Shown here one piece after another: positions 55,234 to 64,000 of a stretch of 64,000 nt of DNA. This DNA is from Escherichia coli (GTDB taxonomy: Bacteria; Pseudomonadota; Gammaproteobacteria; Enterobacterales; Enterobacteriaceae). Each line of letters opens with the position of its first letter. The stretch's first letter is position 1. The stretch is from the NCBI RefSeq assembly GCF_024700885.2, contig NZ_CP117016.1; one strand, written 5' to 3'. Under the pieces are notes generated by a model that was given only the letters and a program-made list of their open reading frames with translations, was not told where the DNA came from and did not search any database. The translations under genes and the position numbers were made by a program.

Positions 55234-56151
55234 ATGGTTCAGAAAATTTTGTCGGATAAGGTTATGAATGAAAGAACAAATGCGTATTACTCTTATTATC
55301 TTGGAGAGCGTAATATCTCCGTACTGCCCCTTAATGTTTATGATCCCCCGGAACGTTTTATCGCTTACATAAAAAAAAACAGAGAAAATCTGAACATCAC
55401 ACTTTCAGATTTTGAACTTGAACAAATCATTTCTGGTATGCGTCTGAAGGCACTGGCCTCCCTGGTGCCCCTGGAAAAAATATCCTGGATCGCGGGCAGT
55501 GAACGTGCATGCTTATTTTCCTGGTATCTGTTGATGCAGTTTATCCAGAATAACAGGACAAAAATAAGCGCAGACTTGCTTCAAAAGAATAAACTGTATC
55601 TTAAAGAAGAGTATTTAGAAGGGAATGCCTTCCCGTCGGACTCATCGACACAGTTCAGACAAATACTCAGAGTTCTCGATATTCTTTCTGATAAGAATTT
55701 GCGGGATGAGTGGATAATCCAGACCAAAGACAGATGGATGCGGGCATTTAAATCAAAGAGTCCTTTCAGTTACCTCCTCCCGGAGAACGAACATGAATGC
55801 ATATGGACATGGAATTATTTGAAGGGAAAAAATATTGCACTGGAAAAACTGGCCAGTTTTCCTGGTTCTGCTGATATTTACCACGCAATTCACCTTTCAT
55901 TTGACATATGGGTTACCTGTCCACTCACCTCACCTGACGATATAAAAAATTTCAGAAACAGTTTCAATAAGGCCAAGGCGCAGCGCAAGTACAAAAAAAT
56001 GCAGGAAGATAAAGTCAATGTACAGTTTTTTCTTGACGCAGAAACCAGGGCGCAGCTCAAAGAATTATCGAGGGTCAGAAGACTCAGTACCGGCGAAATG
56101 CTGCATGACCTGATTGTTGAAGAGTATAAAAGGTACCGACATTCCAGATAA
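55234..56151 (+). CDS. Hypothetical protein, 305 aa, AT-rich, C-terminal ribbon-helix-helix-like segment
   Basis: Strong SD (gagaaagagg); C-terminus VNVQFFLDAETRAQLKELSRVRRLSTGEMLHDLI looks like strand-helix. Confidence 0.55.
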   Translation: MVQKILSDKVMNERTNAYYSYYLGERNISVLPLNVYDPPERFIAYIKKNRENLNITLSDFELEQIISGMRLKALASLVPLEKISWIAGSERACLFSWYLLMQFIQNNRTKISADLLQKNKLYLKEEYLEGNAFPSDSSTQFRQILRVLDILSDKNLRDEWIIQTKDRWMRAFKSKSPFSYLLPENEHECIWTWNYLKGKNIALEKLASFPGSADIYHAIHLSFDIWVTCPLTSPDDIKNFRNSFNKAKAQRKYKKMQEDKVNVQFFLDAETRAQLKELSRVRRLSTGEMLHDLIVEEYKRYRHSR

Positions 56152-56235
56152 TTTCAGACATATATTATCTCCGTGAGTCCCCCACCACCTTTCCGGTGTG
56201 CGGGGGTTTTGTCTTTTTTCACCGGGAATACATGT

Positions 56236-57108
56236 ATGAATCCGTCTGATGCCATTGAGGCAATTGAAAAACCGCTCTCCTCCCTGCCTTACTCACTTTC
56301 CCGTCACATCCTGGAACATCTGCGCAAACTCACCAGTCACGAACCCGTGATTGGCATTATGGGTAAAAGCGGGGCCGGTAAATCCTCACTCTGTAATGCA
56401 CTGTTTCAGGGGGAGGTCACCCCGGTCAGTGATGTTCACGCCGGCACCCGGGAAGTGCGGCGCTTCCGTCTGAGTGGCCACGGTCACAGCATGATTATCA
56501 CTGACCTGCCCGGGGTGGGCGAGAGCCGGGACAGGGATGCAGAGTATGAAGCCCTGTACCGTGACATTCTGCCTGAACTTGACCTGGTACTGTGGCTGAT
56601 TAAAGCCGATGACCGTGCCCTGTCTGTGGATGAGTATTTCTGGCGACACATCCTGCACCGGGGACATCAGCAGGTGCTGTTTGTGGTGACGCAGGCCGAC
56701 AAAACGGAGCCCTGCCATGAATGGGATATGGCCGGCATTCAGCCTTCTCCCGCACAGGCACAGAACATTCGTGAGAAAACAGATGCGGTATTCCGGCTGT
56801 TCCGGCCCGTACATCCGGTTGTGGCCGTATCGGCCTGCACCGGCTGGGAACTGGATACGCTGGTCAGTGCGCTCATGACAGCGCTTCCCGACCATGCCGC
56901 CAGTCCCCTGATGACCCGCCTGCAGGACGAGCTGCGCACGGAATCTGTCCGGTCTCAGGCCCGTGAACAGTTTACCGGTGCGGTGGACCGGATATTTGAC
57001 ACGGCGGAGAGCGTCTGTATTGCCTCTGTTGCACGCACGGTTCTGCGTGCCGTCCGTGACTCGGTGGTCTCTGTTGCCCGCGCTGTATGGAACTGGATTT
57101 TCTTCTGA
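56236..57108 (+). CDS. yeeP: YeeP/YkfA-family GTPase (50S ribosome-binding GTPase fold), apparently intact
   Basis: G1 motif GIMGKSGAGKSS and G3 DLPG; start set at MNPSDAIEA. Confidence 0.7.
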   Translation: MNPSDAIEAIEKPLSSLPYSLSRHILEHLRKLTSHEPVIGIMGKSGAGKSSLCNALFQGEVTPVSDVHAGTREVRRFRLSGHGHSMIITDLPGVGESRDRDAEYEALYRDILPELDLVLWLIKADDRALSVDEYFWRHILHRGHQQVLFVVTQADKTEPCHEWDMAGIQPSPAQAQNIREKTDAVFRLFRPVHPVVAVSACTGWELDTLVSALMTALPDHAASPLMTRLQDELRTESVRSQAREQFTGAVDRIFDTAESVCIASVARTVLRAVRDSVVSVARAVWNWIFF

Positions 57109-57227
57109 ACACTCTGCCAGGGGAAATGCCTGATTACATTGCGTTAACCAACTGAAAACATGACACAAACACCTCATGCCCCTCCTGTTTCTCTTGCGTG
57201 ACTGCTCTGCTGTTAATAGAATAAAAC

Positions 57228-57263
57228 GATCGATAAAACAGGTATCGATCGTTACTATCGATC
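57228..57263. promoter_or_regulatory. agn43 phase-variation switch: three GATC Dam sites in the OxyR-binding region
   Basis: GATC at 57228, 57247 and 57260 within cgatcgataaaacaggtatcgatcgttactatcgatcg, upstream of flu. Confidence 0.75.
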
Positions 57264-57422
57264 GTTTATAGTGGTTAATGGTCTGCGAAAAGGCAGCTGA
57301 ATCTCTTCATCATGCAGAACGGAATTGCACACAACGGACTGATACTTCTCTGGCGGATGAGAGAGGGGAAGCATTTATGTCCGGGAAAAACCACTTTATC
57401 TGACCATGCTGTTTTGTACCTG

Positions 57423-57457
57423 CCGGTATCCACATTTGTGGGTACCGGCTTTTTTAT
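57423..57457 (+). terminator. Rho-independent terminator-like hairpin in the agn43 leader
   Basis: 11-bp stem ccggtatccac...gtgggtaccgg with one G-U pair, then CTTTTTTATT, 24 bp upstream of the flu ATG. Confidence 0.6.
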
Positions 57458-57480
57458 TCACCCTCTGTAAGGAAAAGCTG

Positions 57481-60327
57481 ATGAAACGACATCTGAACAC
57501 CAGCTACAGGCTGGTATGGAATCACATTACGGGCACCCTGGTGGTGGCTTCCGAACTGGCGCGCTCACGGGGAAAACGCACCGGTGTGGCGGTTGCGCTG
57601 TCTCTTGCTGCTGTCACGTCAGTCCCGGTACTGGCTGCTGACACGGTCGTACAGGCGGGAGAAACCGTGAGCGGCGGAACACTGACAAATCATGACAACC
57701 AGATTGTCTTCGGTACGGCCAACGGAATGACCATCAGTACCGGTCTGGAGTATGGGCCGGATAACGAGGCCAATACCGGCGGACAATGGATACAAAATGG
57801 CGGTATCGCCAACAACACTACTGTCACCGGTGGTGGTCTTCAGAGAGTGAATGCCGGAGGAAGCGTTTCAGACACGGTTATCAGTGCCGGAGGCGGACAG
57901 AGCCTTCAGGGGCAGGCAGTGAACACCACTCTGAACGGCGGTGAGCAGTGGGTACATGAAGGCGGGATTGCAACGGGTACCGTCATTAATGAGAAGGGCT
58001 GGCAGGCCGTCAAATCCGGCGCAATGGCAACCGACACGGTTGTGAATACCGGCGCGGAAGGGGGACCGGATGCAGAAAATGGTGATACCGGGCAGTTTGT
58101 TCGCGGAAATGCCGTACGTACCACTATCAATGAAAATGGTCGTCAGATTGTGGCTGCTGAAGGAACAGCAAATACCACTGTGGTTTATGCCGGCGGCGAC
58201 CAGACGGTACACGGGCATGCGCTGGATACCACACTGAATGGCGGTTACCAGTATGTGCACAACGGAGGCACAGCCTCTGACACGGTTGTAAACAGTGACG
58301 GCTGGCAGATTGTCAAGGAAGGTGGTCTGGCGGATTTCACCACCGTTAACCAGAAAGGCAAACTGCAGGTGAACGCCGGTGGTACAGCCACGAATGTCAC
58401 CCTGAAGCAGGGAGGCGCACTGGTCACCAGTACGGCGGCAACCGTCACCGGCAGCAACCGTCTGGGCAATTTCACTGTGGAAAACGGTAATGCTGACGGT
58501 GTTGTTCTGGAGTCCGGTGGTCGCCTGGATGTACTGGAGGGCCATTCAGCCTGGAAAACACTGGTGGATGACGGCGGAACCCTGGCAGTGTCTGCCGGTG
58601 GTAAGGCAACAGATGTCACCATGACATCCGGTAGTGCCCTGATTGCAGACAGTGGTGCCACTGTTGAGGGGACCAATGCCAGCGGTAAGTTCAGTATTGA
58701 TGGCACATCCGGTCAGGCCAGCGGACTGCTGCTGGAAAATGGCGGCAGCTTTACGGTTAATGCCGGAGGACTGGCCAGCAACACCACTGTCGGACATCGT
58801 GGAACACTGACGCTGGCTGCCGGGGGAAGTCTGAGTGGCAGAACACAGCTCAGTAAAGGTGCCAGCATGGTACTGAATGGCGATGTGGTCAGTACCGGCG
58901 ATATTGTTAACGCAGGGGAGATTCGCTTTGATAATCAGACGACACCGGATGCCGCGCTGAGCCGTGCTGTTGCAAAAGGCGACTCCCCGGTAACGTTCCA
59001 TAAACTGACCACCAGTAACCTCACCGGTCAGGGTGGCACCATCAATATGCGTGTTCGCCTTGATGGCAGCAATACCTCTGACCAGCTGGTGATTAATGGT
59101 GGTCAGGCAACCGGCAAAACCTGGCTTGCGTTTACAAATGTCGGAAACAGTAACCTCGGGGTGGCAACCTCCGGACAGGGTATCCGGGTTGTGGATGCAC
59201 AGAATGGCGCCACCACAGAAGAAGGTGCGTTTGCCCTGAGTCGCCCGCTTCAGGCCGGCGCCTTTAACTACACCCTGAACCGTGACAGCGATGAAGACTG
59301 GTACCTGCGCAGTGAAAATGCTTATCGTGCTGAAGTCCCCCTGTATACATCCATGCTGACACAGGCAATGGACTATGACCGGATTCTGGCAGGCTCCCGC
59401 AGCCATCAGACCGGTGTAAACGGTGAAAATAACAGCGTCCGTCTCAGCATTCAGGGCGGTCATCTCGGTCACGATAACAACGGCGGTATTGCCCGTGGAG
59501 CCACGCCGGAAAGCAGCGGCAGCTATGGCTTCGTCCGTCTGGAGGGTGACCTGCTCAGAACAGAGGTTGCCGGTATGTCTCTGACGACAGGGGTGCATGG
59601 TGCCGCAGGCCATTCTTCCGTTGATGTTAAGGATGATGACGGTTCCCGCGCCGGCACGGTCCGGGATGATGCCGGCAGCCTGGGCGGATACCTGAATCTG
59701 ACACACACGTCCTCCGGCCTGTGGGCTGACATTGTGGCACAGGGAACCCGCCACAGCATGAAAGCGTCATCGGACAATAACGACTTCCGCGCCCGCGGCT
59801 GGGGCTGGCTGGGCTCACTGGAAACCGGTCTGCCCTTCAGTATCACTGACAACCTGATGCTGGAGCCACAACTGCAGTATACCTGGCAGGGACTTTCCCT
59901 GGATGACGGCCAGGATAACGCCGGTTATGTGAAGTTCGGGCATGGCAGTGCACAACATGTGCGTGCCGGTTTCCGTCTGGGCAGCCACAACGATATGAGC
60001 TTTGGTGAAGGCACCTCATCCCGTGACACCCTGCGCGACAGTGCAAAACACCGTGTGCGTGAACTGCCGGTGAACTGGTGGGTACAGCCTTCTGTTATCC
60101 GCACCTTCAGTTCCCGGGGTGACATGAGCATGGGGACAGCCGCCGCCGGCAGTAACATGACGTTCTCACCGTCCCGGAATGGCACGTCACTGGACCTGCA
60201 GGCCGGACTGGAAGCCCGTGTCCGGGAAAATATCACCCTGGGCGTTCAGGCCGGTTATGCCCACAGTGTCAGCGGCAGCAGCGCTGAAGGTTATAACGGT
60301 CAGGCCACGCTGAATGTGACTTTCTGA
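57481..60327 (+). CDS. flu: Antigen 43 autotransporter adhesin (948 aa)
   Basis: Signal peptide, repetitive beta-helix passenger (TVxNxGG repeats), C-terminal beta-barrel ending ...TLNVTF. Confidence 0.85.
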
Positions 60328-60361
60328 TAATCAGGTCACTCTCCTTCAGGCCCCGGTCATC

Positions 60362-60556
60362 ATGACCGGGGCTTTTTACTTTCAGGGAGCAACAGATATG
60401 CCGGGTTGTACATCACGTTTATTGCCCGAAGGCCCTTTCTCACGCGAACAGGCTGTTGCCGTCAAAACAGCTTACCGCAATGTATTTACTGAAGATGACC
60501 AGGGAACATATTCCCGGCTGGTTATCCGTAATGCTGAAGGTCAGTTGCGCTGGTGA
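60362..60556 (+). CDS. Small hypothetical protein (64 aa)
   Basis: ORF only, downstream of flu. Confidence 0.3.
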
Positions 60557-60710
60557 TGCCGGAACACAGCTTAATACTCAGCTCGCCAGTTAAGGGCTTC
60601 TCAGACAATAAACGTCATTCATTTCATCTGTCAGGCCGCGTCTTCTCCGGGAGACGCAGCTTTTTCATTTATTACACCAGTAAATCGTAACCACCGATAA
60701 GGAGCAAATT

Positions 60711-61529
60711 ATGCGACTAGCCAGTCGTTTTGGTTATGCGAACCAGATACGCCGTGACCGTCCGCTGACACACGAAGAACTGATGCACTATGTTCCCAGT
60801 ATTTTCGGTGAAGACCGGCATACTTCCCGCAGTAAACGATATGCGTACATTCCCACCATCACCGTACTGGAAAGCCTGCAGCAGGAAGGTTTTCAGCCAT
60901 TCTTCGCCTGCCAGACCCGCGTGCGCGACCCGGGCCGCCGGGGATACACAAAACACATGCTGCGTCTGCGGCGGGCCGGAGAGATAAACGGAGAACATGT
61001 CCCTGAAATTATTCTGCTCAACTCTCATGACGGTACCTCCAGCTACCAGATGCTGCCGGGTTACTTCAGATTCGTCTGCCAGAATGGCTGCGTCTGCGGT
61101 CAGTCTCTGGGGGAAGTGCGTGTTCCACACCGGGGAAATGTGGTGGAGAAAGTTATCGAAGGGGCTTACGAAGTGGTGGGGGTTTTTGACCGGATTGAGG
61201 AAAAGCGTGATGCCATGCAGTCGCTGGTCCTGCCGCCACCGGCACGCCAGGCGCTGGCACAGGCGGCACTGACTTACCGTTATGGTGACGAACATCAGCC
61301 AGTCACCACCGCTGACATTCTGACGCCACGACGCCGGGAGGATTACGGTAAGGACCTGTGGAGTACTTATCAGACCATCCAGGAGAATATGCTGAAAGGC
61401 GGGATTTCCGGCCGCAGTGCAAAAGGAAAACGTATCCACACCCGTGCCATTCACAACATCGACACCGATATTAAGCTCAACCGCGCATTGTGGGTAATGG
61501 CAGAAACGCTGCTGGAGAGCCTGCGCTGA
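60711..61529 (+). CDS. DUF932-family protein (YafZ/YfjQ-like)
   Basis: 272 aa; strong SD aaggag; conserved CP4-type module position. Confidence 0.7.
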   Translation: MRLASRFGYANQIRRDRPLTHEELMHYVPSIFGEDRHTSRSKRYAYIPTITVLESLQQEGFQPFFACQTRVRDPGRRGYTKHMLRLRRAGEINGEHVPEIILLNSHDGTSSYQMLPGYFRFVCQNGCVCGQSLGEVRVPHRGNVVEKVIEGAYEVVGVFDRIEEKRDAMQSLVLPPPARQALAQAALTYRYGDEHQPVTTADILTPRRREDYGKDLWSTYQTIQENMLKGGISGRSAKGKRIHTRAIHNIDTDIKLNRALWVMAETLLESLR

Positions 61530-61870
61530 TGCAGCATGTCCCTGAAGGCGTGATTCAGGCACCAGAATCACCCGACGCCCCGGAGGCGCTGCCGGGGTGT
61601 CGTTCCATTTCTGATGATGACCTGTGCGCCTGGTGTACCCGTCTGCTTTACCGTCCCGGAGAAATCAGTCTGTGCAGACTGAGTATACAGGCAATGGCAT
61701 CTGGCCATCCGTCTGTGACCGGAACGGTTACGCGTACGGCTGTCCGGAATTTCAGCCGAATATCATTCATCCCTGATATTACCGGGTCATCACGGTCAGT
61801 GATGAACGTGATGTTGCCAGGTCCCGACCTTTACTCCCTCTCATTTATTCACATTACAAGGATTTCATAC

Positions 61871-62344
61871 ATGAAAACATTGTCTCAGAACACCACCTCT
61901 TCGGCCTGTGCACCGGAGACTGACCTGCAACAACTGGTTGCCACCCTCGTCCCTGATGAACAGCGCATCAGCTTCTGGCCGCAGCACTTTGGCCTCATTC
62001 CACAGTGGGTGACCCTGGAGCCCCGTGTCTTCGGCTGGATGGACCGTCTGTGCGAAGACTACTGCGGTGGTATCTGGAATCTGTACACCCTGAACAACGG
62101 CGGGGCATTTATGGCACCCGAACCGGATGACGATGATGACGAAACATGGGTACTGTTCAATGCCATGAACGGTAACCGCGCTGAAATGAGTCCGGAAGCT
62201 GCCGGCATTGCTGCCTGTCTGATGACGTACAGTCATCATGCCTGTCGTACGGAGTGTTATGCCATGACGGTCCATTATTACCGGCTGCGGGATTACGCCC
62301 TGCAGCATCCGGAATGCAGCGCCATTATGCGCATCATCGACTGA
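61871..62344 (+). CDS. Antirestriction protein (KlcA/ArdB-like, YfjX/YafX family)
   Basis: ...AAGIAACLMTYSHHACR...YYRLRDYALQHPECSAIMRIID; start at MKTLSQNT (the frame is open upstream to 61490). Confidence 0.7.
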   Translation: MKTLSQNTTSSACAPETDLQQLVATLVPDEQRISFWPQHFGLIPQWVTLEPRVFGWMDRLCEDYCGGIWNLYTLNNGGAFMAPEPDDDDDETWVLFNAMNGNRAEMSPEAAGIAACLMTYSHHACRTECYAMTVHYYRLRDYALQHPECSAIMRIID

Positions 62345-62359
62345 ATGGAGAGAAGTACA

Positions 62360-62836
62360 ATGCAACAGCTTTCCTTTCTGCCCGGAGAGATGACGCCCGG
62401 CGAGCGCAGCCTCATTCAACGGGCCCTGAAAACCCTGGACCGCCATCTTCATGAACCCGGCGTGGCCTTCACCTCCACCCGTGCGGCACGAGAATGGCTG
62501 ATTCTGAACATGGCGGGACTGGAGCGTGAAGAGTTCCGGGTGCTGTATCTGAACAACCAGAATCAGCTGATTGCCGGTGAAACCCTCTTCACCGGCACCA
62601 TCAACCGCACGGAAGTCCATCCCCGTGAAGTGATTAAACGCGCCCTGTATCACAATGCCGCTGCTGTGGTGCTGGCACACAATCACCCGTCCGGTGAAGT
62701 CACACCCAGCAAGGCAGACCGCCTTATCACGGAACGTCTGGTACAGGCACTGGGCCTGGTGGATATCCGGGTGCCGGACCATCTGATAGTCGGTGGCAGC
62801 CAGGTTTTCTCCTTTGCCGAATATGGTCTGCTTTAA
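62360..62836 (+). CDS. RadC-like JAB-domain protein (YeeS/YkfG family)
   Basis: JAMM motif HNHPSGEVTPSKAD; start at MQQLSFLPGE with SD ggagagaag. Confidence 0.8.
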   Translation: MQQLSFLPGEMTPGERSLIQRALKTLDRHLHEPGVAFTSTRAAREWLILNMAGLEREEFRVLYLNNQNQLIAGETLFTGTINRTEVHPREVIKRALYHNAAAVVLAHNHPSGEVTPSKADRLITERLVQALGLVDIRVPDHLIVGGSQVFSFAEYGLL

Positions 62837-62898
62837 CCCGTCACAACCACATCACACCTGTTTTCACTTTTATCTTCTGTCTTCAGAGGTATCCCACT

Positions 62899-63120
62899 AT
62901 GAAAATCATCACCCGTGGCGAAGCCATGCGTATTCACCGTCAGCATCCGGCATCCCGTCTTTTTCCGTTCTGTACCGGCAAATACCGCTGGCACGGCAGT
63001 GCTGAAGCGTATACCGGTCGTGAAGTGCAGGATATTCCCGGTGTGCTGGCCGTGTTTGCAGAACGCCGTAAGGACAGTTTTGGTCCGTATGTCCGGCTGA
63101 TGAGCGTCACCCTGAACTGA
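62899..63120 (+). CDS. DUF987-family protein (YeeT-like)
   Basis: 73 aa; conserved position between the RadC-like gene and cbeA. Confidence 0.65.
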   Translation: MKIITRGEAMRIHRQHPASRLFPFCTGKYRWHGSAEAYTGREVQDIPGVLAVFAERRKDSFGPYVRLMSVTLN

Positions 63121-63282
63121 TGTTCCGTCACCCGGAAAACGAGTACGACTGGCTGAGCTCAGACGCCGCTGTGGATGAGGCCCTGCTCATCAACGAATAC
63201 ACCTTCACCGAAGCCGGTCTGTGCACCGGCTGACCCGTCATCGTTAAACTATCATTCACCGATTTTCTGTGAGGATTTTATC

Positions 63283-63651
63283 GTGTCAGACACACTTTCC
63301 GGGACAACGCATCCCGATGACAATGACGACCATCCCTGGTGGGGACTACCCTGCACAGTGACGCCCTGTTTCGGCGCCCGTCTGGTGCAGGAGGGTAACC
63401 GGTTGCATTACCTTGCCGACCGTGCCGGTATCAGAGGCCGGTTCAGAGATGCGGATGCGTACCCTCTGGACCAGGCCTTTCCGCTGCTGATGAAACAACT
63501 GAAATTAATGCTCACCAGTGGTGAACTGAATCCCCGCCATCAGCATACCGTGACACTGTATGCGAAGGGGCTGACCTGTGAAGCCGACACCCTCGGCTCC
63601 TGTGGTTACGTTTATCTGGCTGTTTATCCGACACCTGAAACGAAAAAGTAA
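63283..63651 (+). CDS. cbeA: CbeA/YeeU-family type IV antitoxin
   Basis: GTG start with SD gaggat; ...[33 protein letters not shown]...[31 protein letters not shown]. Confidence 0.8.
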
Positions 63652-63740
63652 ACCACCAGAATAACCTTCTGCTCCGGCCTGGTGTTTTCACCACGCCACT
63701 GTCCCATTTTTTATCTCTGCATATCAGGAAAATCTTCAGT

Positions 63741-64000
63741 ATGAAAACATTACCCGACACGCATGTACGGGAGGTATCGTGCTGCCCGTCTCCCGTCACC
63801 ATCTGGCAGACACTGCTCACCCGGTTACTGGACCAGCATTACAGCCTTACGCTGAATGACACACCGTTCGTGGATGAACGCGTGATTGAGCAGCATATTG
63901 AGGCAGGCATTTCACTGTGTGATGCAGTGAACTTTCTCGTGGAAAAATACGCACTGGTACGAACTGACCAGCCGGGATTCAGCGCAGGAGCCTCGTCGCA
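63741..64000 (+). CDS. cbtA: CbtA/YeeV-family toxin, 5' portion (runs off window end)
   Basis: [11 protein letters not shown]...[43 protein letters not shown]. Confidence 0.8.

Follow-up and report, generated by a model that had tools for sequence, protein, structure and literature searches.

A 114-codon open frame upstream of ardB in an Escherichia coli island as the probable remnant of a frameshifted small cysteine-rich gene

Among described systems, the antirestriction protein ArdB of Escherichia coli CFT073 is near-identical to the antirestriction protein encoded at the locus considered here. In its 157-aa form this protein relieves restriction in vivo 710-fold for EcoKI, 54-fold for EcoAI, 199-fold for EcoR124I and 1174-fold for StySBLI, so that the relief covers types IA-ID at 54- to 1174-fold (PMC2836571). 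Since the 157-aa protein is active in vivo, the short form is sufficient. Genes of this type also belong to modules of E. coli K-12 (yafZ...yafX and yfjQ...yfjX/lfgA), where other small genes or pseudogenes (ykfK, ykfL, ypjI) are found between the DUF932 gene and the antirestriction gene. The different small genes of the K-12 modules mean that the spacer content of the module is variable.

We analysed 64,000 nucleotides of E. coli DNA, referred to below as the window, in which the frame of an ardB gene stays open far upstream of the ardB start codon. A preliminary description of this DNA had read the extra 114 codons either as an N-terminal extension, unusual for the antirestriction protein, or as a frame kept open by chance in GC-rich DNA. 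Neither reading fits, and what lies there is a frameshifted copy of a conserved small gene. We put a probability of about 0.85 on the reading that the 114-codon stretch represents the pseudogene remains of a small, conserved, cysteine-rich gene and that the long frame is a by-product of two indels. In integrated islands and plasmids of this family, the small gene normally separates the DUF932 gene from ardB. The features of the locus, all on the plus strand, are as follows.

60711..61529, plus strand: DUF932 gene, 272 aa (ORF; Pfam PF06067, E=2.6e-52; annotated by PGAP in the identical DA33133 locus).
61490..62344, plus strand: uninterrupted frame, 284 codons from a GTG and 271 from the ATG at 61529 (ORF listing).
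61529..61684, plus strand: codons 1-52 of the probably decayed small gene, its 5' part, still in their original frame (tblastn with the 81-aa protein of NU14, 100% identity).
61684..61687, plus strand: site of a 2-bp insertion, TATA here and TA in intact alleles (DNA alignment).
61687..61776, plus strand: 3' part of the small gene with codons 53-81 and the original stop (TGA, 61774-61776), shifted to frame +2 with respect to the 5' part (tblastn).
61777..61870, plus strand: non-coding spacer of 94 nt from the ancestral small-gene stop to ardB (sequence and allele comparison).
61789, plus strand: 1-bp insertion of A, GGGTCATCACGG here and GGGTCTCACGG in intact alleles (alignments).
61871..62344, plus strand: antirestriction gene of the ardB/klcA type with a separate start codon, 157 aa (Pfam PF03230, E=7.6e-37; 2WJ9; PGAP start).

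The frame that is terminated by the TGA at 62342-62344 has its nearest in-frame stop on the 5' side at 61472-61474 (TAA). Its first ATG, 61529-61531, shares its A with the stop codon of the DUF932 gene (TGA, 61527-61529), and from this ATG to that of ardB (61871-61873) there are exactly 342 nt, or 114 codons, in the same frame and with no stop. The ORF listing and a stop check both agree with the preliminary description that the 114-codon frame is open, continues upstream to 61490 and is in phase with the antirestriction gene. The listing likewise confirms that no independent ORF of 60 aa or more is present within 61529-61870 in any frame; the longest others have 50 aa (61624..61776, plus strand), 46 aa and 40 aa, and the first of these is the displaced 3' half of the small gene. 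At 53.5% G+C the region 61529-61870 is moderately GC-rich only, and 1.0% of 20,000 mononucleotide shuffles of its 342 nt are free of stops in this frame. It is unlikely that chance alone keeps the 342 nt open; they are open because real coding sequence accounts for 52 of the codons, which leaves a short remainder. The 271-aa product that begins at 61529 has been deposited as a protein, CBG37629.1 of E. coli 042 ('putative plasmid-related antirestriction protein'), and is encoded on 98 contigs, compared with at least 1000 contigs for the 157-aa form of ArdB.

All 81 residues of the intact NU14 protein are present in the window at 100% identity, distributed over two frames, with residues 53-81 at 61687-61773 (tblastn of the intact protein against the window). 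The two insertions were placed by aligning the window with the intact alleles of NU14 and UTME-2. The extra TA at 61684-61687 comes after codon 52 of the small gene (GAGTATACAGG here, GAGTACAGG in the intact alleles), and the extra A at 61789 is found 13 nt 3' of the small-gene stop and 105 nt beyond the 2-bp insertion. The consequences for the protein can be read from the residues that are conserved in its family. The frame from 61529 encodes the invariant residues D29-D31, C33, C36, S47 and C49; W58, P59, G66, Y67 and the fourth invariant cysteine, C71, are encoded solely in the +2 frame. A product starting at 61529 keeps three of the four invariant cysteines and loses W58-P59, G66-Y67 and C71, and 62 of the 114 residues of the extension are out-of-frame or spacer sequence, placed ahead of the ArdB sequence. 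With these losses the small protein is most probably inactive, and its function has, to judge from the residues missing, most probably been lost in the allele of the window. Compared with members of the small family, which have an uninterrupted ORF of about 80-88 codons with its own stop, the window copy has codons 1-52 and 53-81 in different frames. Nor are the invariant D29-D30-D31, C33, C36, S47, C49 and C71 joined in one polypeptide here, C71 being out of frame. The third family feature, a start that overlaps the DUF932 stop with ardB downstream, is present in the window (TGATG at 61527-61531).

The most economical order of events would start with an intact gene, which acquired the 2-bp insertion and to which the 1-bp insertion was added later. 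The TA inserted after codon 52 puts the last 29 codons and their TGA out of frame. Alleles with the 2-bp insertion alone do exist, in strain AREA_502 and in two protein clusters (P0042 and P0050); they have 90 codons and end in ...ITGSHGQ* at a TGA that corresponds to window positions 61800-61802. The A at 61789 lies four codons before this TGA and bypasses it. The 1-bp insertion takes this next stop out of frame and brings in the phase of ardB. Since the two insertions, of 2 bp and 1 bp, add up to a shift of three bases, the frame then coincides with that of ardB, and in the ardB phase the 94-nt spacer is by happenstance free of stops. One further E. coli allele is worth mentioning separately. 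In protein P0006 (ABN773_09460), whose gene is homologous to window positions 61529-61776, the 2-bp frameshift is followed 13 codons later by a compensating shift, and the native C-terminus is back in an 82-aa protein ending in ...CRLSIQAMASGHPSVTGNGYAYGCPEFQPNIIHP. This double shift may be either a second-site restoration or a sequencing error.

What would happen to ribosomes on such an allele? The one-nucleotide overlap of stop and start is kept in all genera, which suggests translational coupling of the small gene to DUF932. Ribosomes that finish DUF932 would probably still re-initiate at 61529. Meeting no stop, they would then read through the ribosome-binding site of ardB and produce some 271-aa fusion of junk to ArdB; such a fusion may thus be translated to some extent. 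Functional 157-aa ArdB would be made from its own Shine-Dalgarno sequence and the ATG at 61871. We infer that the 271-aa fusion has no selected function and that the long open frame arose neutrally as a gene decayed in a cryptic island; it would then be no N-terminal extension shaped by evolution.

The small gene itself is real and conserved. The preliminary description had stated that related elements hold additional small genes between the DUF932 gene and the antirestriction gene, and this is true in E. coli NU14 and UTME-2 as well as in Klebsiella, Yersinia and Mixta. In NU14 and UTME-2, where the locus copies are 3 nt shorter, PGAP annotates an 81-aa 'hypothetical protein' with the same overlapping ATG (WP_001164966 and WP_000680587, respectively); in copies identical or nearly identical to the window locus it leaves the interval from the DUF932 gene to the antirestriction gene unannotated. 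Among about 5.8 billion proteins searched there were 184 homologues, the full-length ones consistently of 79-88 aa, from Escherichia, Klebsiella, Enterobacter, Citrobacter, Salmonella, Yersinia and Mixta, with 52-65% identity outside E. coli. The gene has 81 codons in E. coli, and its orthologues in the other six genera encode 84-87 aa. On contigs of Klebsiella, Yersinia and Mixta the small gene has the same location, with TGATG or TAATG at the overlap of its ATG and the DUF932 stop, and downstream of it come ardB, radC, a DUF987 gene and cbeA/cbtA; in Klebsiella the locus with the small gene is also found on an IncFIB/IncHI1B plasmid. By tblastn, the small gene is carried by 1170 plasmids, 1128 of them typed as conjugative. 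Pairwise dN/dS between genera is 0.16-0.31 (Nei-Gojobori), substitution ratios that show purifying selection on a conserved gene.

Eight residues are invariant in an alignment of 107 diverse members (D29, D30, D31, C33, C36, S47, C49 and C71), and nine more are almost invariant (I27, S28, Y41, P43, G44, W58, P59, G66 and Y67). The conserved core has the pattern DDD...C-x2-C...C...C, and the arrangement CxxC...C...C suggests a Cys4 metal site, which probably binds zinc. An AlphaFold2 model built on the 107-sequence alignment is confident (pLDDT 85.6, pTM 0.74); an earlier run on 66 close homologues (pLDDT 62.5) was set aside. The model has no significant match in PDB or BFVD, and scans of the small protein and its distant relatives against Pfam, NCBIfam, PHROGs and PADLOC assign them to no family, the only profile matches being sub-threshold zinc-finger noise such as RecR_ZnF (E=0.064). 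Literature searches for the motif SISDDDLC found nothing relevant, and those for DUF932, antirestriction and RadC found no description of the small gene. A profile search of 1.84 billion cluster representatives gave 312 clusters (50% identity) at E<=0.001, which include stand-alone proteins of 55-115 aa as well as a core of about 55 residues fused to larger proteins. This SISDDD-Cys4 core is also seen far outside Enterobacterales (metagenome contigs L019 and L021; proteins P0157-P0286). The stand-alone core proteins of 55-115 aa are encoded among arrayed small genes of mobile elements, in the neighbourhood of DUF2786/DUF7168, DUF6908, DUF5983 and DUF3150; the larger proteins within which the core is fused have 150-290 aa, one of them with DUF3846.

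The doubly mutated allele is by no means rare. The region 61480-61900 is present in 2837 of 5426 complete E. coli genomes (megablast). Its alleles were counted with allele-specific probes in which every 28-nt word spans the indel, so that there is no seeding on the alternative allele. With a 52-nt probe the 2-bp insertion was found in 1570 of the 5426 genomes, at 1781 places; the intact junction was found in 1812 genomes, at 2328 places; and the 1-bp A insertion, with a 49-nt probe, in 1567 genomes, at 1818 places. The doubly mutated allele is thus present in about 29% of complete E. coli genomes, in about 1800 copies, its two indels being almost always together, and a genome may have up to three copies of the locus. 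The wide distribution of this allele probably reflects the spread of one island lineage, on which it could have hitch-hiked; selection for the fusion is a less likely cause.

At least five other disrupted alleles of the small gene are known in E. coli, where the gene has decayed recurrently and independently. Besides the 2-bp insertion alone (AREA_502), these are two 1-bp deletions, one close to the 3' end (C21) and one that leads to a 66-aa product (LB858871), a 38-bp deletion equivalent to window positions 61546-61583 (GPEC1222), and a 76-bp deletion equivalent to 61576-61651 combined with a change of the start codon from ATG to ATA (PS2Canimalfeces12). As a separate observation, window positions 61573-61602, inside the small gene, form a GC-rich hairpin with an 11-bp stem that has nine G-C pairs; it was flagged as terminator-like, a resemblance that we regard as fortuitous in a coding part. 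The deletions of GPEC1222 and PS2Canimalfeces12 each have an endpoint in or near the left arm of this hairpin, which hints that it promoted the two independent deletions.

The downstream gene is an ordinary ardB. Its PF03230 (Antirestrict) match scores 125.8 bits against a cut-off of 25 and spans residues 176-271 of the fused frame, which are residues 62-157 of the 157-aa protein. That protein is near-identical to residues 25-181 of PDB 2WJ9 (E=2.7e-110). A Shine-Dalgarno sequence, AAGGA, is situated at 61858-61862, 8 nt before the ATG at 61871; a promoter/terminator scan found no sigma-70-like promoter inside 61529-61870. Six ArdB homologues (from NU14, Klebsiella, Mixta and Yersinia, together with YafX and YfjX/LfgA of K-12) have their first residue at the alignment position of 61871 or close to it, and in all six aligned homologues a counterpart of the 114-codon extension is absent. 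PGAP also chose the equivalent of 61871 in the identical DA33133 genome. A start at 61871 alone, which the preliminary description had named as the refuting result, would agree with the homologue starts, with the PGAP start and with the active 157-aa form. The small-gene stop precedes the ardB ATG by 17 nt in both Klebsiella and Mixta, and by 128 nt in Yersinia. Among E. coli alleles, spacer differences read in the ardB frame are mostly non-synonymous (V/G, P/S, D/G, Y/L), and one allele has a 1-bp insertion; such changes indicate that the spacer is without coding constraint.

An upstream start has been assumed for ardB before. The chain in PDB 2WJ9 has 181 aa, and its first 24 residues, MMNVMLPAPDLYSLSFIHITRISY, are what the spacer encodes when read from the GTG that corresponds to 61799. 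As the allele comparison suggests a non-coding spacer, the deposited sequence probably has a non-native N-terminal extension. Since the protein crystallised with the 24-residue addition, N-terminal additions to ArdB can be tolerated.

Several other readings of the open frame have been considered. That the 271-aa fusion is a genuine, selected, N-terminally extended ArdB, in which the first 52 residues of the small protein or the entire extension add a function or regulate ArdB, we regard as improbable. The frame is fully open and its ATG is probably coupled in translation to DUF932, the allele is abundant, the second indel restores the phase of ardB exactly, the product is on deposit as a protein in E. 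coli 042, and the 24-aa addition in 2WJ9 is tolerated. Yet the extension holds part of the conserved domain only, without C71, W58-P59 and G66-Y67, more than half of it (62 of 114 residues) is out-of-frame or spacer sequence, and no such fusion is seen in the homologues of the other genera compared; E. coli harbours many other alleles in which the small gene is destroyed, the 157-aa protein is enough for activity (PMC2836571), and PGAP does not call the longer form. A bolder suggestion, and a long shot, is that the allele has been selected through a 271-aa ArdB isoform and, separately, that the intact small protein, widespread on mobile elements and tightly associated with DUF932 and ArdB, serves in establishment or anti-defence in a role so far unrecognised. 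If correct, the uninterrupted frame would hard-wire ardB translation to DUF932, and the N-terminal half-domain (DDD, CxxC, C) would alter the activity, stability or partner binding of ArdB.

Three more readings, namely a chance frame, programmed frameshifting and sequencing error, are very unlikely even when taken together. A chance open frame in non-coding GC-rich intergenic DNA might be suggested by the lack of a Pfam match of the region's own and by the silence of PGAP there in identical genomes. It is scarcely credible when the stretch encodes a conserved protein in full (81 of 81 residues, 100% identity), when just 1% of shuffles stay free of stops and when the G+C content is no higher than 53.5%; the alignments, tblastn, the homologues and dN/dS refute it. 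Scarcely better is the idea that the small gene still works, with programmed ribosomal frameshifting at the TATA site yielding the normal 81-aa protein. Both halves are indeed 100% identical to the intact protein, which is equally expected if the mutation is recent. To restore the frame, however, the ribosome would have to shift by +1 or -2 at AGT-ATA-CAG, a site without a slippery motif; relatives with an intact gene have the whole protein in a single frame and need no shift, other alleles destroy the gene by deletions, and an Rfam scan has no match in this region. Finally, the frameshifts might be sequencing or assembly errors in the window, and odd double frameshifts confined to single genomes do occur in databases (P0006, P0010, P0012). 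This is hardly conceivable for the present allele: allele-specific probes detect the same 2-bp and 1-bp insertions in about 1570 complete genomes that are independent of one another, and these counts refute it.

With the alternatives weighed in this way, the pseudogene reading has direct consequences for annotation. The ORF of 271 or 284 aa should not be called an extended antirestriction protein, as was done in E. coli 042 (CBG37629.1); the region is better described as a small gene disrupted by frameshifts, with a 157-aa ardB downstream. A read-through fusion created by frameshifts in a decaying island is a familiar and ordinary event. What it exposes is a conserved, unnamed small Cys4 family, probably coupled in translation to DUF932 and located beside ArdB, RadC and CbtA/CbeA in islands and conjugative plasmids. 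This family, repeatedly lost in E. coli chromosomal islands, is a more interesting by-product of the analysis than the fused frame, and the small Cys4 protein is a reasonable candidate for work on how plasmids and islands become established.

Two neighbouring features of the window may be mentioned. 5' of the DUF932 gene, a DUF905 gene (60398-60593; ORFs 60362..60556 and 60456..60593) appears frameshifted: its Pfam match covers profile positions 2-46 of 70 only, in a 64-aa ORF, and PGAP labels the identical DA33133 copy 'DUF905 family protein, frameshifted'. By these signs it appears to be a second decayed small gene of the same module. Further upstream, an IsrC / IS102 RNA at 57226-57462 (Rfam RF00124, 74.6 bits) is located directly 5' of an Ag43-family autotransporter ORF (57406..60327) and overlaps its start, an arrangement that is CP4-44-like. 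This RNA is the only match in an Rfam scan of 56000-64000, with nothing in 61529-61870.

How does the locus compare with known systems? It shares with WP_001164966/WP_000680587 and their orthologues the position, the overlap of the ATG with the DUF932 stop, and 81 residues at 100% identity to the NU14 protein. It differs from them in that the window gene is split after codon 52, has its stop out of frame and reads on into ardB. In comparison with ArdB/KlcA (PF03230; PDB 2WJ9, ArdB of CFT073; 2KMG, KlcA), the downstream 157 codons are a bona fide ArdB, whereas the 114 upstream codons are unmatched in the homologues examined and derive from a different gene and a spacer. Gene fusions that arise through a frameshift or the loss of a stop in decaying prophages and islands are a further comparison. 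The pseudogenes ykfK, ykfL and ypjI of K-12 CP4-6 and CP4-57 provide a similar picture of a cryptic-island context with several small genes that annotation lists as pseudogenes or as frameshifted, although those islands are without a homologue of the window's small gene (tblastn). Another parallel is offered by the polyvalent anti-defence proteins of plasmids and phages, where ArdB-type and other domains are combined in one polypeptide (Iyer et al. 2017, PMC5512222). On paper, the window likewise has a small mobile-element domain N-terminal to an antirestriction domain. The upstream domain of the window is, however, truncated and continued by out-of-frame sequence, and intact modules are therefore not what is fused here; in its intact form, the small Cys4 domain does occur fused to larger proteins elsewhere.
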